IMG/VR virus record: IMGVR_UViG_3300040801_001355
Span: 11,750-75,749 of that record
Length of the DNA stretch: 64,000 bases
Reading direction: 5' to 3' (one strand)
Source of the DNA: a virus
Taxonomy: Duplodnaviria; Caudoviricetes
Shown: one piece after another, positions 33,199 to 58,014 of the stretch
Numbering within the stretch: position 1 is the stretch's first letter
Layout of the letters: the number at the start of each line of letters is the position of its first letter
Program-made: the position numbers and the translations under genes
The notes under the pieces: generated by a model
What the model was told of the DNA's origin: nothing
The model's database searches: none
What the model saw: only the letters and a program-made list of their open reading frames with translations

Positions 33199-36100
33199 AT
33201 GAGTATCAATAGCAACTATCAAGCTTTACAGCCAACATCTTGGTTAGAGGAAGAGCGCGAAAAAGAAAAGAAACGTCGCGACTCAATACGTCAAACAGAA
33301 GAATATCGATCAATATATGGTGGCGACTCGCTTGCCGCGCCGCCTACCCCGTCTATGGATTTAACAGGAGGGGCGGACGAAGGCCCATCGTGGCTAAACC
33401 CTCGTCCTCAAGACCAAGTCAGACAACGCAGGGCTTCTGTTTTTGACATCATTAAAAACACTCAATCCGTATTTAACCCTGACGCCAAGCCATTAGGCTA
33501 TGGTACGGAGTCTGTTGAGATGAATAATATCAGAAGGTTAGCTGCCGATGGACAGATAACCATAACAGATAACGGTGATATATTTAGAAATTATTTAGAT
33601 GACGACGGCAATGTTCAACGCGAAACAATACCAACTCATTATGTGGATACTAACGAGGGCAAGGTTAAACCTTACTCTTATACTGATGAAGATAAGAAAG
33701 AGTGGTGGGAACTTGCACCTAAATTGATTACTCATACCAACCCATTGACTGCGCCAATTGCGATGGGGTTAGACGCTATTACTAAAAGTACGACAGGACA
33801 AATTGATGCAGAGCAATTTGAAACCAAAGCTCGTCAAGAAACTCCTAAGCAATTAGACGATGAAGCTTCTCTCAACACAGCGGTCGAACACTTTATGGTG
33901 AATCCCGTTGAGAAAGTAGCTGACGCCTTTATGAGTATCGGTACAACTGGGCGACAACAGGGGGACGTAGATTTATTTAAGAGTGGAGAAGGCAGTAAAT
34001 ATAATACGTACCAAGCAGTAGGGGCTATAGCTAATGATGTGACAACCGCGTTGACGGCAGGGGTAGTCGCGACAGTTGCGACAGGCGGCGTAGCAACAAC
34101 TGCGTTAGCTTCTGCTATACCGTCAATACGCGCAACATGGCATGATGTAGCAAGCGGCAAGATGACTACAACAGGTGGGGTTGAGCAAACCCTTATAGAT
34201 GTAACAACGTCATGGGGTGGCTTGAAAGTAGCAAAAGCTCTTGGTCCAGCGTCACGAGCAGGACGACAAGCTATTACTAAAGCAGCAGAAGCAGGATACA
34301 ACCCGTTTTTAACAGCGTATAAAAATGGAATGCGATATGTTATAGCGCCTAACGCTATCAACTTTGGGGTTGATGCAGCGGGGGGTGCAGCTACTGCGGC
34401 TATAAATATATCCCAAACACAAGACGTAAACCTACAAGATGCTGAGCAACAAAAAGCCATAGCTTTACAAGCACTATTGGAAGGTGGGCTGGGGTTATCT
34501 CTTGGCATTATTATGGACGCGGTTGATGTTGGCAAGATAAGTAGAAGTATTAAAAATAATAAAGCCAACACACCTCCCGTTCCAGAAGACCGCAGTGTTA
34601 AAGAGAAGTTAGACGATTTAAGACGACAGCAAAATGCAGATAAAGATGATGGTAATTTAGACGCCAATATAAGAGACGCTGTTGCCCAGCGTTTAATATG
34701 GGAGCCTAATTTAACATACGACCCAGATGCTATAGCTACCTCTCTTATTAACGACTTTAATATACAACCATCAAAGCACGGGTTATTAGTCGAGCACGTA
34801 ACTCATGCGATGGAAGCACAGAAATTACTTGCAAATATTAAAAGTTCAGCAGACGCTAAGTTAGGCTTAGCTGACGAACCTATCGCACAATATGTAACCG
34901 ATGAAGTGGTCGCGACTGCTTCGGCTATTAAACCAAATAGCAAGGTGTTAAAAAATTCTGACTTTGTGGCAACGGAGCAGTTGTTAAGCGGCAAAGAGCC
35001 AACGGAGGAGTTGCAACGACAATCATTCCGTGAGCTAAATAACATGAGTAACCTCATGTATGGGCGAGGTATCGCGGCAGACAATGCAGGTGATTTGCTG
35101 TCTGATATGGATAGCTTTAGTAAAGGTGCCGTGCCTTCTAATTATATCCCGCCGTCTAACTCTTACTATGGCCAAGCATTCGACCAATTAAATACGGTTG
35201 AAGGACTGGACGAAACAGTCAGCCAAGGAGCGTTAGAACTTATGGCTCGTGGCGAAGTATCACAATTACTTAATCAACAATTTGATGTGCTGCAAGAAAT
35301 AGGTTTATCAGCAGAAGACGCAGGCGATATATTAAAGCATGCGTATCTTGGGTTAGATAAAGACATGCCTAACTCAGCAGACTTCTTTGACACAATAAAT
35401 AAGGCAATACAAAAAGACGGTGAGCTTCGTACGCTTGTTGATATAGACAATAAACTATCAGACCACATTGACGATAACCATGAGCTGTATGATATATACG
35501 GCGATAATTTATTAAGAATTGTGCAGAGGGAACCAGGGTTAAGTTTCGTACAGACTCCTGACCCAGCAACGGAAGCAGCTATACAAGTCGAGCCGACTCC
35601 CGCAGAAAGCCAGGTACTTGACGAGGCCACCACTAAAATTGTTAACGATAATGTTGACGCCATGTCACCCGAAGCTAAAGAAGATGTCGCAACTAATCTA
35701 AAGAACTTAGAGAGCGACAAAGTGGGCGGGGAAGATGCGGCAAAAGAAACAACTGACTTCCTTAGTGGTAGCCCAAAGCGTGAAGAAAACGTAGCTAAAT
35801 ATGAAGCAGCTCAAAATGACGCATCTAATCAAGCGGAGGAAACTACTAATCGTCACAATTTAACTCAGAACCGCGATAATAAAATGATGCAGCTGTGGAA
35901 TGATTGGGTTAATAAACGTCGGACAAAGAAGTTTTGGGGTGCATTTGGCAAAGACTTAGAGATAGATGATGATTCAGAAGGCGCGTGGGATTATACGTTT
36001 GGGCGCGATATAACAGGAGTCTTCGAGCCAACGGCCAATTGGCCTTATGGGCTTGTGGCTATACGCACAAAAAACGCATCTAATATTAAGTTTCCAACGT

Positions 36101-39100
36101 TAACTGATGCGGGCATCAGCTCTCCTCCGTTAACTATAGGCAATGAAACCCGACAAGTTAGTTTACACGAGGGTATCCACGCAACCTTTCATCAACAGGT
36201 TATAGGAGACCCAAGGTTTTCGCTCGATATGGGTGAGGACGCGTTTCTAAAATTGCGCGCACAAAAACATAATGAGTGGAAAGATAGTTTTTTATATGAC
36301 ACTAAATACCCACAAATCTTAGACGACGCTCAACAACAACTCTCAATTGCGCAAAGCCAAAACGCCATGGGGCTTGAGAACCAGGCTGAAATTGATAGAC
36401 TTAAATATATTAATAAGTGGCTTAATTACTCCAAGTCGCAGGGCGGGGATATTGAGGAATTATTTACGGTATCTTTTAGTGACCCCGTTATAACGCAGTG
36501 GCTAAAAGGCAATGGGCATTACGCAGGAATAGAGGATTGGTGGCGTAATAATATTAACGAATTATTGCCACAAGAGATGGCCAACGAGGCTCTTGGCCGT
36601 CGTGTCTTTATGTCAGGCGATTATCTTATGGTAGCCGCAGCCTTAGGACTTGGCTTAGACCCAGAAGATGAGCATGGCAATGACGTTGGATGGTTGCAAG
36701 TTGCTTTATTAGGCGCCGCATTTGGTGGTCGTTTACCTAAAGTTTTAAAGCAAAGGTTTAAGAACGCGTTTAAAAATAACTATGTTCCCGTAGAGATGGA
36801 GTCTAATAATTCTGACGCGCTTAGACGCTTACGCTTAAAAGAAAATTATACTGAACTACCAACAGATGAACAGGCAAAATTAAACAACGAGTTACACAAG
36901 TCAGTTCAAAAAGATATTCAGACCGTCAATTCGTGGATGGATGCGGATAGCTGGAATCCATTGGCTCGTTTATACTCATCAAAGATGGAGAGCGTCCTGA
37001 CAAAATCAGGCGTGCAAGATGGGCGGCACACACTGACGGGACAAGAAAAGCCAATTGGCCCCACGGAATTAGCTATGCGTCGAGAAGAAGGTAGGCAAGC
37101 AGCGTATCAAATGCAAGGCAAAGTTACTGAGGCAGATTTGGAGTGGCGTAATTTTACCACTGATAAAAAGATGCGTGGCGCTGTAATAGATGCCTCGTAT
37201 AATATACATGGTCGCTTAGTTGAAAAAGAGTTACAAGGAGACTGGGACTTTAATGATTTAACTGCCGACCAACAAATGCAAGTTGACTTAATAATTGCCG
37301 ACGAACTTAATAAAGCAGCGAACAAGCACGGCGTTAATAATATAGCTGAACTACAAACCTCTTATGATTTATATCGTAAGTATCAAGATGTGTTGACTGA
37401 GTTTGAAGCTAATGCTGCGACGATGAAAAATTACGGTCAAAGCTACGAAGACTTTAAGACGGAGACTATCGGTGAAACCGCGCCGAATAATATACTTATT
37501 GAACAGCAGCAAACAGCAATTAAGTTGAAGCGCGATGAATTACGTGCTAAAGAAAAAGATTTAGCTAACGTAAAAACTCAAAAAAAGGCGGCTGATAAAT
37601 TAGTTGAAGAGCACGCTAAAAACCCTGCTGACTACACGCCTCAACAAAAGTTACAGGCAAAGCGTATACAATTGGCCGCTGATAAATGGCTTGAAGAAGT
37701 GAAAGAAGAAGTTAAGATTGCACGCGCCCAATTAAATGCGTTGCGCCGAGACCCTGTATATGGTATCGCAAAAGAAAAAAGAAAGTTTGCTAAGATTTTA
37801 TTTAATACGGTAGAAAAACGTTCGCCTAATACACAGTATATTGATAGGCATACAGCGTCACGCCGTAAGAAGCCATACACAATAGTAATATCTGAGATAG
37901 ACCCTGAAACAGGTAAGCTTGTTAAGCCAAGTGAGTCTCGTATCAAATTGATTGAAACATTTGGCACACAAAATCAACAGACAAATTACGAAACTGACGC
38001 AATTGTAGATGGCAAACTACGCTACATTACGCTACCTGATGGGACAAGAGGTCGCGAATACAATGTTGATGGTGAATGGGTTCCAGTGAAGTGGGACCCA
38101 TTTAACGCAACTGAACGTAGGCGCTCAACCCAACAAGCTATCAACGTATCTATCCAACAAGTGTTACGCAACTTAGGGATGGTAGATGGTTCGTTAACTT
38201 CAAAAGATATGGCGGCGCTACATAAGAGCTTATCGACGCTTAGTAATAATATACAAAAGTCCTATGCTCATGGTCTTGATGTTGAGGAATCTGACATAGC
38301 CGCACAAGCAGCTGCGTTAGAAGAGTTACTTGGCCCAGTGTTAGAAACTGGCGTGTTAAATAACTCTGAGTCTATCAACAATATCTTTTATATATTAAAC
38401 CATATTCAAAAATCTACGTTAGGCCGCTCAGTTAAGAGTAAGAATTATCAAACCAAATCTATAGTAGATGGGTACACTGCGAACGATTGGTACAAGTGGC
38501 ATCAAGAGACTTCTGACATTAAGATGAATGTATATGCTAACGACATGATAGATGGCGCTTATGAAGCTGAACTCATGCGACAAATGAATGCACTCGGTGA
38601 TAACGGGTTGACCCGCACGCCTTATTTTGATTGGTTGTTTAGAGAGTATAGTGATGCAAAGTACATAATGTCGCCAACAGCAAACGATAACGCATGGTAT
38701 AAAAATGCCCTGCACAACGGCGTCTCTCTTTTAACAGGAGCAACGCTTGCTTTATCTCCTGGCTCTGCTATACGCAATACTTACCAAGGTATCGTCGGAG
38801 ATATTATGTCGCCTACAGCAGAGGCACGGTCGCGTTGGATAGATGGCTTAGTAAATGAAGCGTCTATGAGAGTGAAGTCAGCTAAGCATACCTTCGATAT
38901 TTATCGCAAGAAAGCAACGGGCAATGTTAGCCAAGCAGAATTAGACCAAGCCTATGAAGACGCAGTAAAAGCAGCGACTTCTACCGACGCTCTATTTACT
39001 GACCCACAATTCCATGACGCAGTTGATGAAGCAGTACTACGTAGAATTATGCAAGTAGGCATAGCGGACGACGACCCGTCGTCTCACTTGCTTGGTTCAA

Positions 39101-40764
39101 AGACTGTGCGAGAAGGCGTGCAAGGTGTGCTCATCTTAACACGTATAACTGATTACGCAAACCGTATGTCTGCTGCGATGATAGGAGCAAGACACTGGAT
39201 GGTTAGCAACCCGTACGACCCGAAGCTACATGGTTCTGTTCAAGATTATATTGAAACCGCGGCTACAATCGGAGGGTTAAAAGCTAACACGGTCAACGGC
39301 CGTTATGGAATTAACGATATGTCTCCTGCTATTAGACCTTTCGCTCGTCATTGGTTACTACGTAATACTCTGACAATGTGGAAGCCCGCTATCAAAGCAA
39401 TGGAAAACTGGAATCGTGCTATCATTAATATCAAACCATTCGCAAAGAGCCGACCACATTTAGGCAAAGCCTTTGCCACGTTAGCCGCCGCACAAGCAGC
39501 CGCGTTATTATTTGGCGGTGTCAAAGCAGCGTACTTATATGGCGATATTAAAAATATATTAGATAACTTTGACGAGTTAGCCGACAACATAGCGAATGAA
39601 GCGGGGGAAATCAAGGAAGGTTTTTCTGAGAAATTGTGGAACGAGATATATGCCGCGGCTAAAAAGCACGGCATCTCTAAAGATTATGTAGACGCAGCTC
39701 GCTTAACGTTTGAATACGGCGCACTATCAGCGTGGTTTAATGTCAACTTAGCAGCTGACGAAACCTTGGGTGGATATGCAGAGCCGTTTAATTTAAGTAA
39801 AATGGTGCGCATTATAGACGCTGCATGGGAGGGCATCGACAAGAGTGAAGAGAACGCAATTTTAAACGGGCTATTTAAAGCTGGGCTGGAAGCAGCAGGT
39901 GGTCGCGTTAAAGGTTTTTATAATGGTATAGTCCAAATACAAGATGGTTATCATCAAACTAAAAATGGCGACAGAATTACAGAGGCTTTCTTGACTGAGG
40001 ACGGCAAGGTAGAGGCAAGATACGTACCATATACCATGCAAGACTTGCTCGCAGAAGTTTTCTTTGGCAATCAACTGAAAGAAACAGACGCCAATATGCG
40101 TAGTTACTTAGACGAAAACCCATTATATACTTTGGAACAGAAGGTTGCATACGCAAATAAAATACTTAATGCGTCGGGTATCAAGATGGCTGGTTCATCA
40201 GACACAGAATTGAAGCGTGAGTTTATTAAGAAGAGTGGTATCATCCACCACATAGAAGACGTACGCGCCAAAATCTTAGATAAATTTGAAGAGGCCGCGC
40301 CTAAGATTAAAGCGTCACGCATCAAACTCAGCGAGTGGTTCGATAGCGAGGAGGGCCGCGCAACACTCATGGGTCAGAACGACCAGATGGGGCCAGCGAC
40401 TAACAGAGAAATGCAGCAAATCAAAAGCGCCTTATACAACGACGTCAACGCCTTTTACATTGACAAGATAGTAGCCGACGCGTTGAATGAAGTGGTACAG
40501 GAAAATGGATTACGCGAAAAATTTACAAATAGAATAAATGTACCTAAAGGTCAACCGCTATTTACTTATTTGTTTACAAGCAATCAATTGGCTATTTCAG
40601 AAACAGCGTTTTATGACGAGATAAAAAGTGGTGGCGGAGATATTAAGAAAACATTAGAAAAATATTATCAGTCAGAATATGGTGGCTTTGATTACGTCGT
40701 TGCTAAAACAAAAGCAAAGCTAAAACAAAAGCAATATAAAATAGAACGATTAGGAATAGATTAA
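33199..40764 (+). CDS. Giant internal virion/ejection protein with zincin HExxH motif
   Basis: 2521 aa; A/G/T-rich membrane-like segment near the N-terminus, HEGIH at nt 36166-36180, coiled coils and a hydrophobic helical C-terminal third. Confidence 0.65.
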   Translation: MSINSNYQALQPTSWLEEEREKEKKRRDSIRQTEEYRSIYGGDSLAAPPTPSMDLTGGADEGPSWLNPRPQDQVRQRRASVFDIIKNTQSVFNPDAKPLGYGTESVEMNNIRRLAADGQITITDNGDIFRNYLDDDGNVQRETIPTHYVDTNEGKVKPYSYTDEDKKEWWELAPKLITHTNPLTAPIAMGLDAITKSTTGQIDAEQFETKARQETPKQLDDEASLNTAVEHFMVNPVEKVADAFMSIGTTGRQQGDVDLFKSGEGSKYNTYQAVGAIANDVTTALTAGVVATVATGGVATTALASAIPSIRATWHDVASGKMTTTGGVEQTLIDVTTSWGGLKVAKALGPASRAGRQAITKAAEAGYNPFLTAYKNGMRYVIAPNAINFGVDAAGGAATAAINISQTQDVNLQDAEQQKAIALQALLEGGLGLSLGIIMDAVDVGKISRSIKNNKANTPPVPEDRSVKEKLDDLRRQQNADKDDGNLDANIRDAVAQRLIWEPNLTYDPDAIATSLINDFNIQPSKHGLLVEHVTHAMEAQKLLANIKSSADAKLGLADEPIAQYVTDEVVATASAIKPNSKVLKNSDFVATEQLLSGKEPTEELQRQSFRELNNMSNLMYGRGIAADNAGDLLSDMDSFSKGAVPSNYIPPSNSYYGQAFDQLNTVEGLDETVSQGALELMARGEVSQLLNQQFDVLQEIGLSAEDAGDILKHAYLGLDKDMPNSADFFDTINKAIQKDGELRTLVDIDNKLSDHIDDNHELYDIYGDNLLRIVQREPGLSFVQTPDPATEAAIQVEPTPAESQVLDEATTKIVNDNVDAMSPEAKEDVATNLKNLESDKVGGEDAAKETTDFLSGSPKREENVAKYEAAQNDASNQAEETTNRHNLTQNRDNKMMQLWNDWVNKRRTKKFWGAFGKDLEIDDDSEGAWDYTFGRDITGVFEPTANWPYGLVAIRTKNASNIKFPTLTDAGISSPPLTIGNETRQVSLHEGIHATFHQQVIGDPRFSLDMGEDAFLKLRAQKHNEWKDSFLYDTKYPQILDDAQQQLSIAQSQNAMGLENQAEIDRLKYINKWLNYSKSQGGDIEELFTVSFSDPVITQWLKGNGHYAGIEDWWRNNINELLPQEMANEALGRRVFMSGDYLMVAAALGLGLDPEDEHGNDVGWLQVALLGAAFGGRLPKVLKQRFKNAFKNNYVPVEMESNNSDALRRLRLKENYTELPTDEQAKLNNELHKSVQKDIQTVNSWMDADSWNPLARLYSSKMESVLTKSGVQDGRHTLTGQEKPIGPTELAMRREEGRQAAYQMQGKVTEADLEWRNFTTDKKMRGAVIDASYNIHGRLVEKELQGDWDFNDLTADQQMQVDLIIADELNKAANKHGVNNIAELQTSYDLYRKYQDVLTEFEANAATMKNYGQSYEDFKTETIGETAPNNILIEQQQTAIKLKRDELRAKEKDLANVKTQKKAADKLVEEHAKNPADYTPQQKLQAKRIQLAADKWLEEVKEEVKIARAQLNALRRDPVYGIAKEKRKFAKILFNTVEKRSPNTQYIDRHTASRRKKPYTIVISEIDPETGKLVKPSESRIKLIETFGTQNQQTNYETDAIVDGKLRYITLPDGTRGREYNVDGEWVPVKWDPFNATERRRSTQQAINVSIQQVLRNLGMVDGSLTSKDMAALHKSLSTLSNNIQKSYAHGLDVEESDIAAQAAALEELLGPVLETGVLNNSESINNIFYILNHIQKSTLGRSVKSKNYQTKSIVDGYTANDWYKWHQETSDIKMNVYANDMIDGAYEAELMRQMNALGDNGLTRTPYFDWLFREYSDAKYIMSPTANDNAWYKNALHNGVSLLTGATLALSPGSAIRNTYQGIVGDIMSPTAEARSRWIDGLVNEASMRVKSAKHTFDIYRKKATGNVSQAELDQAYEDAVKAATSTDALFTDPQFHDAVDEAVLRRIMQVGIADDDPSSHLLGSKTVREGVQGVLILTRITDYANRMSAAMIGARHWMVSNPYDPKLHGSVQDYIETAATIGGLKANTVNGRYGINDMSPAIRPFARHWLLRNTLTMWKPAIKAMENWNRAIINIKPFAKSRPHLGKAFATLAAAQAAALLFGGVKAAYLYGDIKNILDNFDELADNIANEAGEIKEGFSEKLWNEIYAAAKKHGISKDYVDAARLTFEYGALSAWFNVNLAADETLGGYAEPFNLSKMVRIIDAAWEGIDKSEENAILNGLFKAGLEAAGGRVKGFYNGIVQIQDGYHQTKNGDRITEAFLTEDGKVEARYVPYTMQDLLAEVFFGNQLKETDANMRSYLDENPLYTLEQKVAYANKILNASGIKMAGSSDTELKREFIKKSGIIHHIEDVRAKILDKFEEAAPKIKASRIKLSEWFDSEEGRATLMGQNDQMGPATNREMQQIKSALYNDVNAFYIDKIVADALNEVVQENGLREKFTNRINVPKGQPLFTYLFTSNQLAISETAFYDEIKSGGGDIKKTLEKYYQSEYGGFDYVVAKTKAKLKQKQYKIERLGID

Positions 40765-43693: not shown

Positions 43694-43718
43694 AAAAAGC
43701 CACGCTGTTAACGTGGCT
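43694..43718 (-). terminator. Intrinsic terminator-like hairpin
   Basis: Minus strand AGCCACG-TTAACAG-CGTGGCT followed by T run. Confidence 0.5.
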
Positions 43719-43727
43719 ATATTTTTT

Positions 43728-44285
43728 TTAATCTGTTTCTTTGACGCGTTGCCAAATGTCTTCGGTCAACGTCCAGCTTAACAGATAAATGTAAGTGAGT
43801 ATCTTATAGACAATCTCATCTATCATTTTCTCTGTCAAGTTTCTTGTGTTAAACTCTTTATCGTGCTTTAAATACTCAAGTATAGAGGCGCTGTGCTTAC
43901 TCATGTTGCCTTGCATCGCATCTAACGGAGTGGTCGCCCCGCCGCTTTGTGATGCCTGTAACCAGAAGTTGTTAAATCTATCGCCGCCATCTTGCGTGTA
44001 CTCTTTTGCTTTACCCATAGTTCTGTCGTTGATTAGCTGCAATACTTTATCAAAGACAACCGCAAAAGCCTCTTGCGTCATAGTCACGCCTTCTGTTTCA
44101 AAGTCTGCGAGAGCGCGTTTACTTGTTACAAGTGGAGTCACTTCGTTAATGAGCATGAGTATGTCGCCTATGTTCTCGCTATTATACTCGCCCTCTATCA
44201 TCTGCGTTAACTTTAAGTAAGGTTTATTACGCGATGGTGCTAACGCTTCGTTAGCTTCACGCTTTTCACTATTCTTATCTGACAT
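43728..44285 (-). CDS. All-alpha nucleotide-metabolism-associated (MazG/Nmad1-like) protein
   Basis: KAKEYTQDGGDRFNNF..MSKH..SI..EKMIDEIVY pattern. Confidence 0.5.
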   Translation of the reverse strand: MSDKNSEKREANEALAPSRNKPYLKLTQMIEGEYNSENIGDILMLINEVTPLVTSKRALADFETEGVTMTQEAFAVVFDKVLQLINDRTMGKAKEYTQDGGDRFNNFWLQASQSGGATTPLDAMQGNMSKHSASILEYLKHDKEFNTRNLTEKMIDEIVYKILTYIYLLSWTLTEDIWQRVKETD

Positions 44286-44298
44286 TTATCCTCCGTAA

Positions 44299-44709
44299 TT
44301 AAAATGGTACATCATCATCTTCTGTTGCCTGTGCTGACGCATCAGGCGCGGCTTTAGCATAAGAGTCGTCGTTGTTTTCTTGCCTACTTACGAACTGTAT
44401 TTCATTAGCCTTGAGATATTTATATCTCTGCTTATTGCCATCGTCATCTGTGTACTCGTAACTTTCGTCTGGTCCAGCAACATATACCATGTCGCCTTTA
44501 TTTATCTTCTCTACTTTACCGACCAACGGGCCAAAGACTGTGACGTTGTGCCATGTTACTTGTTCTACCCATTCGTCATTCTTATCTTTGTAGTATCTGT
44601 TAGTTGCCACAGTTAACTTCGCTTTCTGTGTGTCATTTTTACCGACTGTAATCTCGGGTTGCATCCCTACGTTGCCAAGTATTTCTTTGCGGTTAATATT
44701 AATAGCCAT
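44299..44709 (-). CDS. ssb: Single-stranded DNA-binding protein
   Basis: ILGNVG..PE, LTVATNRYYKD..WHNVTVFG, KGDMVYV and an acidic DDDVPF tail. Confidence 0.93.
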   Translation of the reverse strand: MAININRKEILGNVGMQPEITVGKNDTQKAKLTVATNRYYKDKNDEWVEQVTWHNVTVFGPLVGKVEKINKGDMVYVAGPDESYEYTDDDGNKQRYKYLKANEIQFVSRQENNDDSYAKAAPDASAQATEDDDVPF

Positions 44710-44724
44710 TATAAACTCCTAAAA

Positions 44725-45804
44725 TTACTTAAATAAATTGCGCTTGATTCTAAACGACCTTGCGCCTGGTTCTTCTACTAAATACTTGCGATATAACTCT
44801 GCATTTTCAGCTTTAAAGCTATCCGCGTTAAACTTAAATTTGTTCTTGTTGTTTTTCAGTGTTGCATATACCGTGCCATCGTATGTCAATTCCTCTGCGT
44901 CTTCTAAATATATCTTTACGTCATCTTTTAATGCCGCTATCATACCACCTATATCTTTAGCTTCCTGCTGCAAGTCGGCTGTAGCGTCGAGTATCTGTTG
45001 TTCAACCTCTTTTTGTTTATCTTCTAACTTTACGATAGCTTCGATTGGGTTTTGTGTTAACTCAGCTAAGTAATCCTGAGCTACTGTCAATGCGTCAGAA
45101 TAAAAATCACTCAGGTCACGCTGCTTCTTAGGAACGGCAACAGAGTATCGTTGCTTCCATTCGTTAAGGTCATTAACGGGCGGTGGCTCTTCGGGTATTA
45201 CATGACGATTCCAAAAGTCCTCCGCTAATTCTAACAGCAATTCAAATTTTTCTCTGTCAAATTGTACGGGGAATATTTTTAAATCATTATCTAATAACGC
45301 ACATAGATGTGACTCTTCGTCAACCGCTATATCATCACCAAATAGCTTGTTGTATTGTTCAACGTAATCAATATATATACCCGTGTTCCACATTAATTGT
45401 GTAACGTACATATCAGGTGGCCCATCCTTCCACATATTTTGAACAGCATAGCCAACTGAGTTCTTATGTTCAACAACCCTGTGTTTGCCATCACTCAACA
45501 CAACGATATTATCAGGCGTAGTGTGTGCCCAACTGTATCTTGGGTGCTTGATAACTACGTCTTCTGACATATATAAATCGCAACCCATTTCTTCTGCGTA
45601 TAACTGTGCGATAAAAGACTCGATGAACGAGCCTCTTCGCATAGCTATCGTCGGAGTAGTCTTAGTGCCATTCACTTTTCTATCCCACAATTCATAAGGC
45701 GTTTGATAGTGGTTCTCCCCTGTCAATATGCCAATCTCACTACCACCTATTGATGCGGCACGTGCCTTTAAAAACTTCTCTTCTTCTTCCCTTGTGCGTA
45801 TCAT
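44725..45804 (-). CDS. YqaJ-like viral recombinase exonuclease
   Basis: SIGGSEIGILTG, MRRGSFIE, TPDN..EHKN, YVTQLMWN. Confidence 0.9.
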   Translation of the reverse strand: MIRTREEEEKFLKARAASIGGSEIGILTGENHYQTPYELWDRKVNGTKTTPTIAMRRGSFIESFIAQLYAEEMGCDLYMSEDVVIKHPRYSWAHTTPDNIVVLSDGKHRVVEHKNSVGYAVQNMWKDGPPDMYVTQLMWNTGIYIDYVEQYNKLFGDDIAVDEESHLCALLDNDLKIFPVQFDREKFELLLELAEDFWNRHVIPEEPPPVNDLNEWKQRYSVAVPKKQRDLSDFYSDALTVAQDYLAELTQNPIEAIVKLEDKQKEVEQQILDATADLQQEAKDIGGMIAALKDDVKIYLEDAEELTYDGTVYATLKNNKNKFKFNADSFKAENAELYRKYLVEEPGARSFRIKRNLFK

Positions 45805-46527
45805 TTAATTACCCCCTGTTGCAATCGATTGAATTTCCTTTAAGATTTTATCGTAATTACTTTTATCAACTTCTTTCAATGAAGTCAACCCGTTGTTACC
45901 CAATATAGTTAATACACCTTCTTGCGATAAGCCAACCTTCTGCGCCTCAGCCCATAACGTTGCCCCGAGTGACGCAGTTTTCTTTGCTTGCGCTGTACTT
46001 GGGGGGTTCTTAGGAGTAGACTTAGGGGCCGCTTGGGGGGTAGACTTAGGGGTCTTACGCTTTACAATCTCCTTCTTCCCATCTACATTATCGTCTAAAT
46101 TATTATTGTCAGGCTCTTCGTTAGGGTTATAATATGGTATGTCAAATATCATGCCATATACATAACGTTTTACATAAGTAGACGTCGCGCCAAATCTTTG
46201 TACTAAATTTCTTTGTTGCGTGTCTGATGAGATATTGTTAAATACGTAGCTTAACTGGTCTTCTGGATTATCTGTGCTATAAAATACAACAGTCACATCA
46301 TAGTCGTCTACAACTCCGTCGCTATTTTTATTACCCTTCATAGAGAAGTGTGACCATAAGCCATTCTCTACTAATAGTGGATTGAGAGCTTGTTGTATGT
46401 CACGTAGCTCTGCATAATTGTATTTTTGGTGTGGGTTTTTACCGTGTTTTTGCACCCATAACCCATCTTTAACGGCGTTTAATTTTTGATAAATGTTTTC
46501 GCCGCTTATTACTTTTTTCGCTGGCAT
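45805..46527 (-). CDS. ERF-family ssDNA annealing protein
   Basis: KHGKNPHQKYNYAELRDI..LNPLL and QRFGATSTYVKRY..F. Confidence 0.85.
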   Translation of the reverse strand: MPAKKVISGENIYQKLNAVKDGLWVQKHGKNPHQKYNYAELRDIQQALNPLLVENGLWSHFSMKGNKNSDGVVDDYDVTVVFYSTDNPEDQLSYVFNNISSDTQQRNLVQRFGATSTYVKRYVYGMIFDIPYYNPNEEPDNNNLDDNVDGKKEIVKRKTPKSTPQAAPKSTPKNPPSTAQAKKTASLGATLWAEAQKVGLSQEGVLTILGNNGLTSLKEVDKSNYDKILKEIQSIATGGN

Positions 46528-46805
46528 AAGTCCTCCGATATAATAAAAAATTCAACATCGCCTATAGTTAAAGGCGTGTCGGTTAAATGTTTAAAGTATA
46601 ACTTTCTTTTAATGCGTGTCGGGATTGTAGCTTCCCAAGCTGTTTGATTCTTTTGTACGTACGTACCTATCGTATTGAATATAGTGTCGCCCTTCCTTTT
46701 GCCAAGGCGTTTGCACTTAATATTGTTACTATCTAAAAAGCGTGATAGTTTTTTACCGTTTACTATTTGATATTTTGGCGTGTCAATTTTTATTGATGGT
46801 TGCAT
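46509..46805 (-). CDS. Hypothetical protein
   Basis: 98 aa, overlapping and coupled ORF in the operon. Confidence 0.4.
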   Translation of the reverse strand: MQPSIKIDTPKYQIVNGKKLSRFLDSNNIKCKRLGKRKGDTIFNTIGTYVQKNQTAWEATIPTRIKRKLYFKHLTDTPLTIGDVEFFIISEDLCQRKK

Positions 46806-47169
46806 TTCTTCGCTTTATCTCCTTTAAGTGTTTCTCGTGTAAGATGTTTATTGCATACGTGATACACGCAACAATACTATATATTATTGTATCCCCATCT
46901 AAAAAATAATAGATAAATACCGCGCTAATAAGCGTTGTTGTAACATATAATATCGTAGAGTACCCCAAAAATGTAGCGTATAATAATGACATCATCCATG
47001 TAATTGCTACGACGTACTGTATATCAACTGTTATAAAGCTGAATATAACGAGTGCAAGTAACGAGAAGATTTGGATTGCTCTGTGCCATATACTTTCCGT
47101 ATCTACATTTAAAGTTAGTGCAAATAGTGGTGGTAAAACTATGGTTAAGAATAAGATTTTTATGTCCAT
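46783..47169 (-). CDS. Multi-pass membrane protein
   Basis: About four hydrophobic segments with a basic C-terminal tail. Confidence 0.55.
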   Translation of the reverse strand: MDIKILFLTIVLPPLFALTLNVDTESIWHRAIQIFSLLALVIFSFITVDIQYVVAITWMMSLLYATFLGYSTILYVTTTLISAVFIYYFLDGDTIIYSIVACITYAINILHEKHLKEIKRRNATINKN

Positions 47170-47765
47170 AATTTACCCTTTAATTTTGCTCGTGCGTTAT
47201 TTAGTTTCTTTCGTAGTTGCGTCGTGTGTGCGTTCGTGTCAACCAGCAAGATGCTAATCAACCTCAATTCTTCCGCCGTTAATTTTACCTCCGCTGTCGG
47301 CGCGTCCTTTTTAATTTTTAAAAAATCTTGGTTATTATACGCTGCCTTATACGCTAAGGCGTACGATGAGTATGGTTTTATAATCCCGTCAGGTCTTACC
47401 GTAACATATATACGTGTTTTGTTGTCTTCTAAATCTTTGTAATATATTTTAATATGGTTAAGCTGCTCCTTATACTTATACCCATTAAGTCTATCGTTAA
47501 CAAATTTATCTGCGTCTGCCACTTTGTCTATATCTATCAGCTCGCTGAGTATCATACGGTACTTATCGGGATACAGATACGGATTAATTTGGACGGTCTT
47601 ATTATCCGAGGAGGACTTCAATAACCCGTATCGTATACCCGCAGCAACAGCTTGATTTGTAACGCCTAAGTCTTTAGCCAACTGTTCGGGCGGCACAAAC
47701 GTATCGGTGTTACGTTTACGCTTAGGCGTAGCGCTATGCAATATGAGCCCCTCATTATTTTTCAT
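47160..47765 (-). CDS. HTH (MerR/excisionase-like) domain protein
   Basis: VPPEQLAKDLGVTNQAVAAGIRYGLL. Confidence 0.55.
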   Translation of the reverse strand: MKNNEGLILHSATPKRKRNTDTFVPPEQLAKDLGVTNQAVAAGIRYGLLKSSSDNKTVQINPYLYPDKYRMILSELIDIDKVADADKFVNDRLNGYKYKEQLNHIKIYYKDLEDNKTRIYVTVRPDGIIKPYSSYALAYKAAYNNQDFLKIKKDAPTAEVKLTAEELRLISILLVDTNAHTTQLRKKLNNARAKLKGKLWT

Positions 47766-49113
47766 CGGATATTTCGTATTGTTCTGCCACAATTTCCGCT
47801 TCCAACGTAAACAAGTCTTCGACAGTTACAAGGGGTTCGCCACAATCTTCGCAATACAACAATACTTTCTCCATATCTATGTCGGATATATCGTTATCCT
47901 TTTTATCCAATGTGTCAGAGTATAAATCATATGCAAAGTCACGTATCTCATACTTGTTGTATTCAGTATCACAGTGCTTACAGAAGTAAGCGTCGTCGAA
48001 GTTTTCGTTTAAAGTTGGTGGTAAAAAACTGTCAACCGCTGCGTCATCTTTAAATGGAGGCTCATCAAATTGATAGTAATCACCGTAATCATTGTACGAA
48101 TATATCCCTTCCCACATCTTACCCTTGCCACGATAAGAGTATCGTGGTGCAGGTTCGCGTTCTACCAATAAATTTTTCCAATTCAATTGAAGCAGAGCGT
48201 TAATAAGTGTCGTCATAAACAATATATCTTGCGACTCATTGCGTGAGTGCTGGTCAAAGTAACCGACACTAATATTTGTGCACTCAGCTATATACGGAGC
48301 AAACTCACGTGAGTCTGTGTATACACCTGTTGGGTCAGGCGACATAAAGACACCATACTTTGCAAGTTCATCACTGAGTGACAGAGCGAACGCGTCTGAT
48401 GCAGTTGTGTAACCCGCTTGTTGCGTGACTATAGAGTCATACCCACGTCTATCAAACGATATAACTATATTTATATCCCGCAGTGGGTGGTCGCTGCTAT
48501 TACCTGTATATGTAGGATACTTAGGGGGCGTGATGGAAAACTCCGTGGACTCAACCTCTTTATAAACGTACTTATATTTAGGCCACTTATCTTTCTTGCT
48601 TTTATCTTCAACACGTACGCTCTCCATTTTGGTGGTAGTTTTTTGTTCACCGTATTGCGAAGGGTTGCCGCTATATAAATCCAATACGTTCCTATCAAAA
48701 TCTGTAGCTGATGCGGTCGAACCTTGACACCCACATTCTTCGTCTACAAAAAATGCGTATATTCCAGGCACATTATTCTTCATCATAAAATCCATTATTG
48801 TTATGCCGCTTTTGTCGTCAGCTCCCAACACTTCGCCATGTGTAGCTCGTACATATCTGCCATCTGAATCGTGTATGACCTGACGATAATGAGCCGACAC
48901 ATCATCCATGTGTGCAGCGAACATAACGTTGGGCTTGTATCCTATGACACAATAAATGTTGCCGCTCTTATCAAAATATTGCTTGGCATCGTAACGTGGT
49001 ATTTTGTCGTAAAATCTATAGCTCTCTCCCGACGGGATGTTATACTCAGTATATTTCAAAAACGTCTTACGTACTTGCGTTGGCGTTACTTTATAAGTTT
49101 CCATTTTCTTCAT
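47755..49113 (-). CDS. M28/M20-like zinc peptidase with C-terminal zinc ribbon
   Basis: FAAHMDD, LGADDKSG, DEECG, SFDRRG, YTDS, NISVGY..QH; CKHC..CEDC. Confidence 0.85.
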   Translation of the reverse strand: MKKMETYKVTPTQVRKTFLKYTEYNIPSGESYRFYDKIPRYDAKQYFDKSGNIYCVIGYKPNVMFAAHMDDVSAHYRQVIHDSDGRYVRATHGEVLGADDKSGITIMDFMMKNNVPGIYAFFVDEECGCQGSTASATDFDRNVLDLYSGNPSQYGEQKTTTKMESVRVEDKSKKDKWPKYKYVYKEVESTEFSITPPKYPTYTGNSSDHPLRDINIVISFDRRGYDSIVTQQAGYTTASDAFALSLSDELAKYGVFMSPDPTGVYTDSREFAPYIAECTNISVGYFDQHSRNESQDILFMTTLINALLQLNWKNLLVEREPAPRYSYRGKGKMWEGIYSYNDYGDYYQFDEPPFKDDAAVDSFLPPTLNENFDDAYFCKHCDTEYNKYEIRDFAYDLYSDTLDKKDNDISDIDMEKVLLYCEDCGEPLVTVEDLFTLEAEIVAEQYEISDEK

Positions 49114-49132
49114 TTAAGACTCCTAAAATTTA

Positions 49133-50812
49133 TTAAAAAGGTATTGGTTCTGCAGGCTCTTCTGTCGTCTGCTTTACTTCGGGGCGCTGTTTGATAACGT
49201 CTTGTATTCTCTTTACAAACTCTGACATTGAAATATCGCGTGTATGTCCTATGACTGACACCCTACGAATAATGTCGTTACTTATCTTTACGTCATCGGG
49301 GTTTGGGATTTTTATCATAGCTCTCTTGTGATTGTCGTCCCACCCAAAAGCATAAGACGGTACGTAAATAAATGGAAATATATTAGATAGTGCATGACGC
49401 ATAACATAAGCCCACTTTTCTGTCGGCATAAAAGGACGGTGTCTATTCGATAAGACGAATACGTCTGTTGTCATAACGTTCTTTCTACCAAGTGTTATAT
49501 GCCAACCAGCATCACCGTAGCGTTCTAACACTATTGTTGTGTTGTCTAACATAACCGCGCTCTCATACCTGATGTCAGATAGTGGGATTGAACAACCAAG
49601 ATTATCTGTTGACCTATTTTCAGTTGACCCTTGTATCCAGCATAACGCCTTATTGGGTTCGCGTTCTAATAATTCCCCTGCTTTTTTCAGCGACAAAATA
49701 TTGACGTAATTTTTTTGTTGTTCCATTGCGTTATCAATTTGGATTCTTGGCATTGCGTTACGCACGTTATCCATATAAGGGAAGTAACCCGTACGTGACA
49801 CAATATGATAATGGCTATCGTCTGTTAACGGCAGACTGTCACACTCAGCCCACTCAACCCACGTAGAACCATAAGTTTTGTCTAAGTATTTCTTAACAAC
49901 TTGCGTAAGACTCCTTTTGAAAGACTCCTCGTTCTGCGTAGAGTATACTCGTGGCACATGGTAATGTTTAGCGTCGTGATTAACGTATATTATACCACGT
50001 GACACTATTTTATCGCGCACTTTATAGTAACCTATGAATACATTGTCGTGTAATTTGGAAGAGTAAGCATAACAATCATTTAATATGTTAAGCGGGTTAG
50101 GCGATAAGCATGAGTACGGTCCAGGTGAAGCCTCATCATTTGCGTATACTTCTTCAACGATAGACTTGTAAGTATCAGGATAATTTGACTCATCACACGC
50201 TGGCTGAATGACGATTTTGTCAGTTTGCACGAATGTTTCTGCTGCCTTAGTCGCCACAACTTCTAACGTTGCGCCAGCTACTACATTATACAGTGACTTT
50301 AGATATTTAGTCGTAGCTTTGGATTCTATAATTGCATCCGCATCTTTTGTATCGCACATCGCATGCCCCCGACTTTTAGTCGTCACATAATTTTGCAACC
50401 TTATATTGTCGCTATCTAAATCGGCCTCATTTTCAACGTGTAAGCGTAGAATTGGACATATTATTGTATACGTTACGCCACCAATTACAGCCTTATATAA
50501 ACGCATTTTCTTTAACTCAGTCTTGAGATAGGTTTTAGCGAGACTCCAACTCTTTCCGTTGTCGTGGGATATATAGACGCCTCTTTCATATAACCCCCAT
50601 AACGCATCGTTATCAAAAGGTAACTCTATAATGGTAGTAGAAGCGTCTAATTTAACATAGTGGTTTTCGTAAACCCTTTCTGTCTCTAATGCAACGTTTG
50701 TTGTCAACGCGCTTGTTGTCAACGCATTTATTGCTACGTCTGCTGGGTCTGTAGAAAGCGACGTAAAATTTTCGCGTTTTATATTTACTGTGTTTAAATC
50801 AGTTAATCGCAT
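49133..50812 (-). CDS. SC(M/L)-domain protein, paralogue 1
   Basis: GPYSCLS..CYAYSS..NVFIGY..IVSRGII..RVYS..FPYMDN; GGAGG upstream of ATG 50812. Confidence 0.6.
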   Translation of the reverse strand: MRLTDLNTVNIKRENFTSLSTDPADVAINALTTSALTTNVALETERVYENHYVKLDASTTIIELPFDNDALWGLYERGVYISHDNGKSWSLAKTYLKTELKKMRLYKAVIGGVTYTIICPILRLHVENEADLDSDNIRLQNYVTTKSRGHAMCDTKDADAIIESKATTKYLKSLYNVVAGATLEVVATKAAETFVQTDKIVIQPACDESNYPDTYKSIVEEVYANDEASPGPYSCLSPNPLNILNDCYAYSSKLHDNVFIGYYKVRDKIVSRGIIYVNHDAKHYHVPRVYSTQNEESFKRSLTQVVKKYLDKTYGSTWVEWAECDSLPLTDDSHYHIVSRTGYFPYMDNVRNAMPRIQIDNAMEQQKNYVNILSLKKAGELLEREPNKALCWIQGSTENRSTDNLGCSIPLSDIRYESAVMLDNTTIVLERYGDAGWHITLGRKNVMTTDVFVLSNRHRPFMPTEKWAYVMRHALSNIFPFIYVPSYAFGWDDNHKRAMIKIPNPDDVKISNDIIRRVSVIGHTRDISMSEFVKRIQDVIKQRPEVKQTTEEPAEPIPF

Positions 50813-51948
50813 TCTTCCTCCCAGCCCCACGTGCCATCAGCCTGCGGCTCCCAAGTCGCATAGTTTGCTGAAACGTAGTCTCCGTTTATTGTAATAACGT
50901 CAAAATCTTTACTGCCATATAACGCGGTTAATCCATGTGAATCTGTATCTGTATATGCCTCAGTATCGTATATCAACTCTTTACTCCCGCCTAACACTAA
51001 GCAGCTTGATGCTTCTTCAATACGTGCAAATCCGTCGATATAAGGGACGATGTATTCTCCGCAACAACCAGGATTAGGGGCGACTTTAACGCTTATTGTT
51101 TTCTCGTAATCTTCATTAAAAGTGTGCACGCTTACTACTGCGTCAGCATCTACAAAATATTCTTTAAGTTTATTCATCGCTAACTTTCTAAATATGTTGT
51201 TGTTTACTTGTGCATATGTGTCATTCAAAACAACTACTTTTTCATCGTCAGTTATAAATGCTAAGCCTCTCGCAACAATGGTATCGCTGCTATTAACTGC
51301 GTAAACTATAAACACATTGCCCTTTTCTTTAGAAGAATGTGCATAAAACGTATTCAATACGTTACTTATGTTGTTCGACATACATGAACGCGGCCCCTCT
51401 TTATACACTTGTTCTATGATGGTTTCGTGTAAATTTGTCGTTGGTTCTGCGTGTGCAGGTTCAATGTAAATGTCCCAATCCATTTGACGTTTAATTTCAT
51501 CTTTAATAGCGCCAAATATATCAGCGTATATTTCAAACCACTGTTGTTTGTTTAAAGTAACGTTGTCATAATATTTTACTGACCTTTTTGCGAGTTCACG
51601 CAAGGTTTTACGTAAAGCCTCACCTCCAATCAAAACTAACTTACCGTTTTCATAGGCCATCGTCATAGCGCCAATGCGTGAGTATACGTAGTGACTTTTA
51701 CGTAACATACGTCTGACACTGTATTTAGAGTTAGTTACTACGTGTTCTTCATCAATTCTATTCCCTAAAGAATCTACTTGTATTATTGCGTCTTTTAGAA
51801 TTACGTATGCTCTATGAAACGCGTGGTATATAGGTGACTTATTAGTGTAGGGTATTTGAATGTTGTATGTTGTATCGTCATGTGGAATGTTCACATGAAA
51901 TGTACCTATCTCTACTTCGCGTGTTTCTGTCGAGTTATGCCGCGGCAT
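50803..51948 (-). CDS. SC(M/L)-domain protein, paralogue 2
   Basis: GPRSCMS..FYAHSS..NVFIVY..IVARGL..VPYIDG. Confidence 0.6.
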   Translation of the reverse strand: MPRHNSTETREVEIGTFHVNIPHDDTTYNIQIPYTNKSPIYHAFHRAYVILKDAIIQVDSLGNRIDEEHVVTNSKYSVRRMLRKSHYVYSRIGAMTMAYENGKLVLIGGEALRKTLRELAKRSVKYYDNVTLNKQQWFEIYADIFGAIKDEIKRQMDWDIYIEPAHAEPTTNLHETIIEQVYKEGPRSCMSNNISNVLNTFYAHSSKEKGNVFIVYAVNSSDTIVARGLAFITDDEKVVVLNDTYAQVNNNIFRKLAMNKLKEYFVDADAVVSVHTFNEDYEKTISVKVAPNPGCCGEYIVPYIDGFARIEEASSCLVLGGSKELIYDTEAYTDTDSHGLTALYGSKDFDVITINGDYVSANYATWEPQADGTWGWEEECD

Positions 51949-54001
51949 TATTGACCTCCATTAAATTTAGTTGTCCTTGTGCGTTAGTTTTTGTGTATCC
52001 TTTTACAAAATACTTTATATCGTCGTGTATTATTTCGCCCCAATCGTATTTAACTCCGCTTTTGTGTCCTAATTCAAAGTGCTCCATGAAAGAACCGTCT
52101 ATTAAAGAGTGAAGCGGGACAAATTTAACGACTTCAAATATCCTGTCGTCATCGTATGCCAGGGCTTTAATAGGCACGTCAAGCGTTAAAAATTCTGACT
52201 GTGTAAAACCCCAAGGTTCAGAGGGCTTACGCACTAAGCATAATTTGCCACTTCTATATTGCAAGTAGCCGCTTTCAATCATACCTGTAATGTCAAGCGT
52301 ATGATATTTATGCGCATAACATTCCACGTAGTCAGTCCAACTATCTACATCGGGGATGGCATAAGATTCGTTCATACACGAATTTTCCTCAACTATGAGA
52401 ACTCCTCTATCCGCATGAAGACTAAAAGCCGACGGCTTCACACACAAGTACTTTTTATTGGTTGCACGATAACCATATAAATCTGGCTCGTCGTTTACAG
52501 GCACATAATCTGACCCCACTATGCTTCCTGTGCTCTCTATTACGTCAATAGATTTATAATCGTCGTCGTTTACATCAATATAATCTTTAATTATATCACT
52601 ATATACTATATCTTCGTGATGTATGTCGACCTGCGAATCGTAAGTTTGAGAGTAAACAGCGTCATCTTCTGCAACATATGAATCGTGATATTCTGACCAT
52701 GCGTAGTCTGAAAGATGTATATATCGTGCCCTTCCATCATCATACACAATGTCGTAATCTTCAATATGATAATATTCATCTTGCTCTTCGATGTATACCG
52801 CTTCGTCGTCGGGGACGTATTCTCCAAGATTCGGGATATATACACGATCGCCACAGTCATCGGCTGAAAAATGCGTCGGGCCGCCGTTATCTCTGTAATG
52901 GTGCTTGTCATTATCGCCGCCTAACAGAAGTTGGTCATAATATCTGTTAGATATATCGGCATATTTATTTGGCAATGACTCGTATTCTATAGCGTCAATA
53001 CCATCCCAACTATCTATGTATGGGACTAATTCATCTTTATCTTTAACTAACACAGTAACCGTGCACCCAGAACTTTCCGCGTCAAAAACATCTTTATATA
53101 TCGTCGCATTTGGGTACATTTCTTTTAATTCGTCAGCCACTTGCACGACAAAAGCATAGTCGTATGTTGTGCGTGATGAGTATGGTTTTGCGATAATAAG
53201 CTCGTCTTTATCTTCGTTATCTGTGACAAAAACTAATGACCGTGCTAATATATTATCGTTCTCATCTTTGCCGTATGCTATATGCACGTTATTAAGAATC
53301 TGCGAACTGAACGCATACGTATTAGTTAAAGCTACCCTGCCATCTCTATCCCGCGCCATACATGACGTAGGTTTAGCGTCGTTATAAATATCTACGACAT
53401 TTTGGTTGCATGGCATAACTTGGATATGCAGTTTACCATATTTGCGTTTGTGGTAATCAGCAATACTTTTTAAAGCCGCCGTTAAATAAGTTGCCGCCTT
53501 CTTGCGTATAGGCTTAAGTAATGACGAATAAGTTATTATGGAATCCATTATTTTACTACCATTATCTTGGGGTTCAATTCTACGCTCTTTATTACGTAAC
53601 CTACGACTATTGTTCATCGGGAAATTCCAGTGCATACGCTTATTCTCGCTGTCCCAACAACAGTACCTATATAACATCATTCTGCCGTCTCTCTTTATCG
53701 TATACTTTGTTTCAACAAGATGTAGGCTATTCTTAACCATAGCTTTAATCGGGATTAAGTTGTCTTCTTCCCACGTATCAGCCATCTTTAAGCCCCATAT
53801 TTGACCTTTGTAATGAACTACGTAAAAATTGACGCTATTCATAAGTTCGTCAATTGCCTCGCGATTGTTGTTGGGGTTATCAAAAATATTTAACGCATTT
53901 AGTTGTTTTAACGCGTCTGGACACGCTTCTCTTTGGGAGTCGGCAGTAAACGGTTCTTGATGTCGAAAGAAATCGTCCCCGCTTATATAACTGTAATACA
54001 T
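51935..54001 (-). CDS. SC(M/L)-domain protein, paralogue 3, with D/Y-rich repeats
   Basis: KPTSCMA..TYAFSS..NVHIAY..ILARSL..KPYS..VPYIDS; AGGAGG upstream of ATG 54001. Confidence 0.6.
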   Translation of the reverse strand: MYYSYISGDDFFRHQEPFTADSQREACPDALKQLNALNIFDNPNNNREAIDELMNSVNFYVVHYKGQIWGLKMADTWEEDNLIPIKAMVKNSLHLVETKYTIKRDGRMMLYRYCCWDSENKRMHWNFPMNNSRRLRNKERRIEPQDNGSKIMDSIITYSSLLKPIRKKAATYLTAALKSIADYHKRKYGKLHIQVMPCNQNVVDIYNDAKPTSCMARDRDGRVALTNTYAFSSQILNNVHIAYGKDENDNILARSLVFVTDNEDKDELIIAKPYSSRTTYDYAFVVQVADELKEMYPNATIYKDVFDAESSGCTVTVLVKDKDELVPYIDSWDGIDAIEYESLPNKYADISNRYYDQLLLGGDNDKHHYRDNGGPTHFSADDCGDRVYIPNLGEYVPDDEAVYIEEQDEYYHIEDYDIVYDDGRARYIHLSDYAWSEYHDSYVAEDDAVYSQTYDSQVDIHHEDIVYSDIIKDYIDVNDDDYKSIDVIESTGSIVGSDYVPVNDEPDLYGYRATNKKYLCVKPSAFSLHADRGVLIVEENSCMNESYAIPDVDSWTDYVECYAHKYHTLDITGMIESGYLQYRSGKLCLVRKPSEPWGFTQSEFLTLDVPIKALAYDDDRIFEVVKFVPLHSLIDGSFMEHFELGHKSGVKYDWGEIIHDDIKYFVKGYTKTNAQGQLNLMEVNNAAA

Positions 54002-54020
54002 TTTGCCTCCTATAAAATTA

Positions 54021-54055
54021 AAAATAAAAGGGCGACGCACTCATAATACGTCGCC
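54021..54055 (-). terminator. Terminator-like hairpin
   Basis: GGCGACG-N11-CGTCGCC (54031-54055) followed on the minus strand by CTTTTATTTT. Confidence 0.5.
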
Positions 54056-54718: not shown

Positions 54719-54773
54719 TACGTCCTCCTCTAATTAATTATTAAAAATAACCACGCATCTTACGTGGCACGTT

Positions 54774-55561: not shown

Positions 55562-55611
55562 AAATCCTCCTATAAGTATTAAAATTAACGTAGCATTTTA
55601 CTACGTACGAC

Positions 55612-56811: not shown

Positions 56812-56863
56812 AACGTCCTCCTATAAGTTAATTAATAACACGTGCCACCATCGACACGCACAC

Positions 56864-57970: not shown

Positions 57971-58014
57971 AAAAAATCCTACCCAACACGTTTTTACACG
58001 TGCTAAATAGGATT
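57971..58014 (-). terminator. Terminator-like hairpin after the two AT-rich first genes
   Basis: AATCCTA...TAGGATT outer stem with inner CACGT/ACGTG, then a T run on the minus strand. Confidence 0.45.

Follow-up and report, generated by a model that had tools for sequence, protein, structure and literature searches.

A triplicated, extremely diverged variant of a widespread and uncharacterised gene pair, encoding a conserved Ser-Cys core protein and a predicted two-zinc exopeptidase, in a Caudoviricetes genome

Comparisons in the literature place the gene pairs KP34p10/p11 and PhiM1_09/10 in the set of conserved early genes that have no known function (PMC4411677, PMC6115819). The large protein of the pair belongs to a family whose known members include KP34 gp10, PhiM1_09, PP16 orf10 (PHROG 13313, 'unknown function') and VP93 gp6; these proteins carry the motif set Y..GP.SCM, R, Y and PY.D, and their genes adjoin the upstream side of a gene for one and the same peptidase family in the early regions of Autographiviridae. 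Neither Pfam nor the literature searched assigns a function to the pair, and no study of its function turned up in our searches of the literature. Here we describe a locus of this kind in a 64,000-nt stretch of DNA (the window), which corresponds to positions 11,750 to 75,749 of the IMG/VR virus record IMGVR_UViG_3300040801_001355 (Duplodnaviria; Caudoviricetes). The window shares the motif set, the predicted core and the gene arrangement with the KP34 gp10 family. It differs in having three tandem copies of the large gene before a single peptidase gene, copies that have diverged beyond the reach of BLAST and word searches and two of which lack the acidic tail ending in Ala-Ala; moreover, the phage, known from a contig of about 75 kb, is unrelated to Autographiviridae. 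As judged from sequence comparison, what is new here is a triplicated, extremely diverged variant of a widespread, uncharacterised gene pair.

The three large genes lie on the minus strand and encode the proteins P0004 (paralogue 1, 51935-54001), P0003 (paralogue 2, 50803-51948) and P0002 (paralogue 3, 49133-50830), the last being directly upstream of the peptidase gene. P0004 has 688 amino acids when counted from the ATG at 54001 and 701 when counted from the GTG at 54040; P0003 is the shortest copy with 381, and P0002 has 565 from its GTG, an ATG being found at 50812. A common core of about 150 amino acids occupies residues 203-345 of P0004 (53006-53434), 159-307 of P0003 (51028-51474) and 205-356 of P0002 (49763-50218). 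When the three cores are aligned, 24 columns are invariant and the identity is 29-32%; the invariant columns include P.SC, L...YA.SS, NV.I.Y, D.I..R, Y and PY.D, with the invariant Ser188-Cys189 of P0003 encoded at about 51382-51387 and the Cys motif of P0002 reading 'PYSCL'. Since pairwise BLASTP gave E-values of 4e-14 (P0003/P0002), 5e-8 (P0003/P0004) and 3e-4 (P0002/P0004), the similarity of the cores goes beyond chance, and the flanks outside the core could not be aligned among the three proteins. The initial annotation of this DNA, made from the letters and the translated reading frames, had described three adjacent genes sharing one core in unrelated flanks, and this is borne out; the motif string that it gave was also essentially correct, as P.SC(M/L), YA.SS, NV.I.Y, I.(A/S)R and PY(I/M)D are all seen in the core alignment.

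Direct searches with the window proteins returned nothing else. With the cores as queries, tblastn against phages matched only the window itself, as did scans of IMG/VR with the core alignment and with the window peptidase (P0001) alone. A word-index search of 5.8 billion proteins found nothing beyond the window, and a hidden Markov model (HMM) of the three-core alignment, searched against 1.8 billion representatives, recovered only fragments of the window's own proteins. The three paralogues matched neither Pfam nor PHROGs.

The link to the family came by way of the peptidase, whose homologues were examined for the genes that precede them. In PP16, Kp2, OWB and Pasto the peptidase gene is directly preceded by a gene for a 'hypothetical protein' of 516-711 amino acids, in which '(V)Y.NGP.SCM', an Arg, 'Y.R.YG' and 'PY(L/V)D' follow each other in the order of the window core. 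Scanning IMG/VR with a degenerate DNA pattern that encodes V-Y-x-[E/N]-G-P-x-S-C-M gave 87 stretches, of which 83 encode a protein that matches an HMM of mixed members at E < 1e-5. Against a family HMM built without the window sequences, P0003 scored 38.5 bits (E 4.4e-8) and P0002 17 bits, where the best of 600 shuffles reached 10.4. The comparison of the window core with the PP16-family alignment by hhalign gave an E-value of 0.024, which is weakly suggestive, and for this reason the family link rests on the mixed-member HMMs. When the structural model of P0003 was compared with BFVD using Foldseek, proteins of KP34-like and VP93-like phages (Klebsiella phage KpV48, Vibrio phage VpP_DE17) stood at or near the top, in a ranking that also holds proteins of similar length from Shigella phage Buco, Caulobacter phage Lullwater and uncultured phages. 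We consider it very probable that the three genes form a highly divergent branch of a large family, as regards both the identity of the family and its linkage to the peptidase; the family is absent from Pfam, none of its 72 non-redundant members matching any Pfam model.

A tree of the core with 115 tips sets the window copies apart as a separate clade (support 0.83) whose branches are very long. This fits a lineage-specific tandem triplication of one gene followed by fast divergence, although the grouping may also reflect long-branch attraction. The C-terminal part of P0004 holds in addition a degenerate second 'ENSCM...YA' motif (residues 553-582; 52295-52384, minus strand) with a weak secondary match to the family HMM. 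This likeness is at the level of the motif, and the segment may be a decayed extra, that is fourth, copy of the core.

Any protein retrieved with the DNA pattern necessarily has the motif residues, and therefore a second set of proteins was collected through the peptidase alignment only and the conservation was recounted there. The Cys is found in all 45 non-redundant domain proteins of this set (43 by hmmalign and two by inspection), and Tyr182, Ser188, Met190, Arg227, Pro302, Tyr303 and Asp305 (P0003 numbering) are conserved in at least 91%. The ordered set Tyr, Ser-Cys-(Met/Leu), Tyr, Arg, Tyr and Pro-Tyr-x-Asp is intact in all three window copies. The conserved core of the family spans about 230 amino acids, and its consensus shows an extra conserved stretch, AYT....KG..DR.T..KPG.YL, about 50 residues N-terminal of the window core. 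The conservation of Cys, Arg, Tyr and PYxD, first pointed out for the three window proteins, holds far beyond the window. Since these proteins are otherwise only 15-25% identical, an invariant Ser-Cys together with Arg, Tyr and Asp suggests a catalytic or ligand site.

The partner gene (47755-49113, minus strand) encodes P0001, a protein of 452 amino acids that matches phrog_4191 ('peptidase') at E 3e-63 and is predicted to be a two-zinc exopeptidase of the MH clan. It keeps the full set of ligands and base of this clan (H68, D70, D99, E125-E126, D221 and H289), the H-x-D, D, E-E, D, H series that is common to the PepT-like M20B (3gb0, 3rza), M42 TET and M28 peptidases. In the alignment of the peptidase family H68, D70, D99, E125, E126, D221, D267 and H289 are invariant. 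Compared with solved chains, the family profile matched PepT (3gb0, 5e-8), a tripeptidase (3rza, 8e-7), M42 TET1 (8e-5) and M28 aminopeptidases (0.01). The zinc peptidase said in the initial annotation to follow directly in the same operon is confirmed by the PHROG match and the complete ligand set, the gap of 19 nt to the preceding gene fits a shared transcription unit, and the label 'M28/M20-like' is fair, the clan being MH and the nearest relatives by profile being PepT-like M20B and M42.

The family differs from the described MH-clan peptidases in its size of about 330 amino acids, its matches to PepT-like chains covering stretches of the catalytic domain only; the family may lack the lid/dimerisation domain that is inserted in the M20 family proper. 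The window copy adds a Lys-rich insert of 68 amino acids directly after the Glu-Glu motif (residues 137-205; 48499-48705, minus strand) and a C-terminal extension of about 120 amino acids with two CxxC pairs (47755-48120, minus strand), both of which are missing from the other 15 aligned family members. The idea that the zinc ribbon in this extension is the C-terminal module of the domain family, moved onto the partner, was dropped, as the family C-terminal profile gave it no support. Homologues of the peptidase occur in 364 phage records, mainly from the Autographiviridae of Klebsiella, Pectobacterium and Vibrio. Megaphage genomes of 630-735 kb (LR745206.1 and related uncultured records) have four to six separate places each that match the peptidase.

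The adjacency of the two genes is nearly obligate from the side of the domain gene: a peptidase gene is adjacent on the same strand at 57 of the 64 pattern-derived loci that had enough flank to be testable. Seen from the peptidase, 55 of 80 loci carry a detectable domain gene, which is directly upstream in 47, downstream in seven and on the opposite strand in one; at the remaining 25, of which many lie on large contigs, a domain gene was not detected. A domain gene without peptidase (7 of 64) is thus rarer than a peptidase without domain gene (25 of 80), which suggests an asymmetric dependence, of the domain on the peptidase. Clustering of all neighbouring open reading frames (ORFs) across the loci showed that only the domain and peptidase families co-occur broadly. 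The linkage proposed for the window is found in other genomes. As to amidoligase and ATP-grasp genes, of which the initial annotation saw none in the window, no third gene family is shared with the pair across loci.

The number and order of the genes vary. The window has three domain genes followed by the peptidase gene, one IMG/VR locus (L041) reads domain-domain-peptidase, and three (L038, L047 and L087) read domain-peptidase-domain. Plasmid pVL1_2 of Methylobacterium indicum (L175, 699-9944) carries two domain genes, a peptidase gene, a small ORF and then a further domain gene and peptidase gene; a gene of the glutamate-tRNA ligase family lies 3 kb downstream of this array. A divergent subtype of the domain, with the motifs 'LW.SCMRY', 'RALLW', 'MDRIY' and 'PY.DTF', is located downstream of the peptidase in six IMG/VR loci, many of them on large contigs (L101, L105, L106, L108, L109 and L116), and both subtypes flank one peptidase in L038, L047 and L087. 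The pair is met in early regions or in surroundings of a type associated with DNA entry. Phage Pasto carries an ArdA-like gene immediately upstream of it, and on the conjugative Sphingopyxis plasmid pMC4 it is placed between a DUF2958 gene with a ParB-like gene and the toprim and DUF2493 genes.

For the fold of the core we used AlphaFold models. The model from the three-sequence core alignment had a mean predicted local distance difference test (pLDDT) score of 58; that of P0003 from a full-length alignment of 72 sequences (m65fb5473e3de) had a mean of 60, with most of the core at 75-87. Searches of two independent models with VIA-align and Foldseek gave GNAT and no other fold class, with weak matches. 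The predicted core has the element order of the GNAT superfamily, which includes FemA/FemX and the L/F- and R-transferases: a strand, two helices, a three-strand meander, a helix and a strand. The pyrophosphate-binding motif of GNAT enzymes after strand 4, Q/R-x-x-G-x-G/A, is not found at the corresponding position, where the window copies read Y-(A/S)-x-x-N... with no Gly and the family consensus is Y.R.YGD. The full-length model matched nothing in the PDB at E<=1e-3 by Foldseek, and a profile search of PDB sequences with a family alignment gave only insignificant LIM-like matches to the zinc-ribbon part. The layout of the core had at first been likened to both PcfJ and GNAT domains; the GNAT half of this comparison survives through these sole, weak fold matches, whereas PcfJ received no Pfam match and no profile-profile signal.

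The explanation of the locus that we favour, tentatively and in the knowledge that it could well be wrong, is that it carries a triplicated member of a widespread two-gene module of phages and plasmids whose core is a cysteine-dependent enzyme of the transferase type. The module would consist of a large protein with a predicted GNAT-like core of about 230 amino acids and of a two-zinc MH-clan exopeptidase that follows it. An acyl-enzyme or an aminoacyl- or peptidyl-enzyme thioester would be formed on the Ser-Cys loop, which in the predicted fold would lie at the acceptor-site position and line the acceptor cleft, the classical acetyl-coenzyme A site being left unused. Soon after the DNA has entered, the core and the exopeptidase would act together on the ends of proteins or peptides, whether these belong to the host or to the phage. 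The chemistry would be common to the three copies, and the N- and C-terminal flanks, which are unrelated, would direct it to three different targets while one peptidase is shared. For the mechanism taken by itself, a cysteine-dependent transferase working with the exopeptidase, we claim less: it is possible, and doubtful enough to be held loosely. The asymmetry of the linkage leaves room for a model in which the domain protein gives specificity to the peptidase.

Foremost among the alternatives, and in our opinion rather unlikely, is that the core is a non-enzymatic adaptor that gives specificity to, or activates, an exopeptidase presumed to have no lid, the flanks recruiting the substrates and three copies giving three ranges of targets. 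The dependence of the domain on the peptidase would be expected of such an adaptor, and so would the domain to peptidase copy ratios of 3:1, 2:1 and 3:2 that occur among the loci. The small size of the peptidase, which aligns to PepT over the catalytic domain only, and the absence of the GNAT acetyl-coenzyme A motif from the core point in the same direction. On the other hand, an invariant Ser-Cys with Arg, Tyr and Asp amid so little overall identity is more suggestive of a site for catalysis or ligand binding than of an interface.

A second alternative, raised in the initial annotation, is a writer and eraser system in which the three proteins would mark different targets with an acyl or peptidyl tag that the peptidase then takes off or trims. 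The GNAT-like fold matches and the tight coupling of the genes agree with it, and the MH clan has deacylases, for example ArgE and DapE, among its enzymes. An eraser should, however, seldom occur without its writer, so that the asymmetric linkage, with its many peptidase loci lacking a detectable domain gene, makes the fit poor; moreover the acyl-coenzyme A motif is absent and no donor-forming enzyme (amidoligase or ATP-grasp) co-occurs. We regard this system as improbable. By analogy one may also think of an editing of protein termini on incoming DNA, where the exopeptidase would trim the termini of host proteins and a GNAT-like transferase that depends on a cysteine would then cap them again or lengthen them. 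The parallel would be with the aminopeptidase and L/F-transferase steps of the N-degron pathway, and our confidence in such editing is low. If it were true, host proteolysis would be redirected or defence proteins disabled, and the triplicated copies would be diversified targeting subunits.

We think it very improbable that the core is a divergent PcfJ-like domain (PF14284), an uncharacterised domain known from conjugative plasmids and Herelleviridae phages. The two have in common one conserved Cys at the end of a helix that is followed by a beta meander; by eye, PcfJ of pCF10 shows a similar order of a strand, a helix ending in EG..L.HC (NGP.SC in our family), a Tyr and a three-strand meander. 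Both are met in phages and on conjugative elements, and a protein-language search gave, as a lead only, one viral cluster in which 44% of the members have PcfJ (score 0.80). Nevertheless kinship found no support from HMM, profile-profile or structure searches. The window proteins, their cores and the 72 family members had no match to the domain in Pfam, and hhalign probabilities were 0.1-0.3% against both a narrow PcfJ alignment and one broadened by five phage proteins (from Bacillus, Staphylococcus, Listeria, Polaribacter and Brevibacillus phages). No protein so labelled was among the top 50 structure matches in BFVD.

The C-terminal features of the family are less constant than its core. A CxxC...CxxC zinc ribbon is present at the C-terminus of 50 of the 72 members and absent from all three window copies, and since about a third of the members lack it, neither the ribbon nor the acidic tail defines the family. 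Out of 113 distinct members, 39 have Ala-Ala and 50 have Ala at the C-terminus, far above chance. Within the window only P0004 shows such features: its N-terminal flank and core are followed by a repeat region that is acidic and rich in Tyr and then by a C-terminal part that ends in NNAAA (51935-51946). The ssrA tag ends in a similar way, which hints at some connection to AAA+ proteases of the host. That the large proteins serve as substrates, pro-proteins or decoys, either processed by the peptidase or engaging ClpXP-type proteases of the host through their Ala-Ala tails, would suit these ends and the many acidic tails and zinc ribbons; it is nonetheless very improbable, as two of the three window copies have neither an Ala-Ala end nor a zinc ribbon and keep every conserved core residue, from which the core and not the tail appears to be the selected part.

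Regarding the organisation of the locus, the four co-directional minus-strand ORFs (51935-54040, 50803-51948, 49133-50830 and 47755-49113) are joined by overlaps of 14 nt and 28 nt and by the 19-nt gap, which fits a single transcription unit for the domain genes and the peptidase gene. A terminator-like hairpin of 11 pairs with a T-run (54031-54055, minus strand) is placed just upstream of paralogue 1 and is likely to be the boundary of this unit. The GTG at 54040 falls within this hairpin, so that paralogue 1 more likely begins at the ATG at 54001.

Further co-directional genes follow downstream on the minus strand (43728-47792). These are three small genes of unknown function (47160-47792, 46783-47169 and 46509-46805) and genes encoding an Erf annealing protein (45805-46527), a YqaJ/RecE-like exonuclease (44725-45804), a single-stranded DNA-binding protein (SSB; 44299-44709) and a phrog_6802 protein (43728-44285), after which a terminator-like hairpin (43698-43718, minus strand) closes the run. 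None of these downstream genes co-occurs with the domain-peptidase pair in the other loci. The remainder of the window is a structural module with a portal, a major head protein, a collagen-like tail fibre of 2251 amino acids and proteins of 1712 and 2521 amino acids. The tail fibre gene (19750-26505, plus strand) lies in a region of raised G+C content, 0.45-0.48 as compared with about 0.40 elsewhere, and the 2521-residue ORF at the end of the module (33199-40764, plus strand) matched no PHROG and, by tblastn, none of 50,697 phage records.

Many terminator-like hairpins whose stems are built around ACGT or CACGTG were observed in the minus-strand early region, at 43698-43718, 54750-54768, 55588-55606, 56838-56861 and 57975-58014. 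Terminator-like sites numbered 28 where 13 were expected, and the hairpins with these stems may represent a regulatory family specific to this phage.

The phage itself appears to be isolated. Megablast gave no nucleotide match in the phage collection, and there was no close relative among the 167 IMG/VR loci that were fetched, none of its neighbouring genes matching any of them.

The gene pair is found in hundreds of sequenced phages, including the KP34-like Klebsiella phages and podophages of Pectobacterium and Vibrio, and on conjugative plasmids, and the copies in the window, which are invisible to BLAST and to an HMM search of 1.8 billion proteins, indicate that the family extends well past the reach of sequence searches. 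In this phage the core was multiplied and given new flanks and a single peptidase was kept, which would make the core the constant working part and the flanks the exchangeable targeting parts. The minimal copy, P0003, which has neither zinc ribbon nor acidic tail, should ease the study of the family. KP34-like Klebsiella phages and the podophages of Pectobacterium and Vibrio are used or proposed for therapy and biocontrol. As the pair sits among the first-expressed genes and beside anti-restriction genes, it is a candidate tool for host takeover or for countering host defences.

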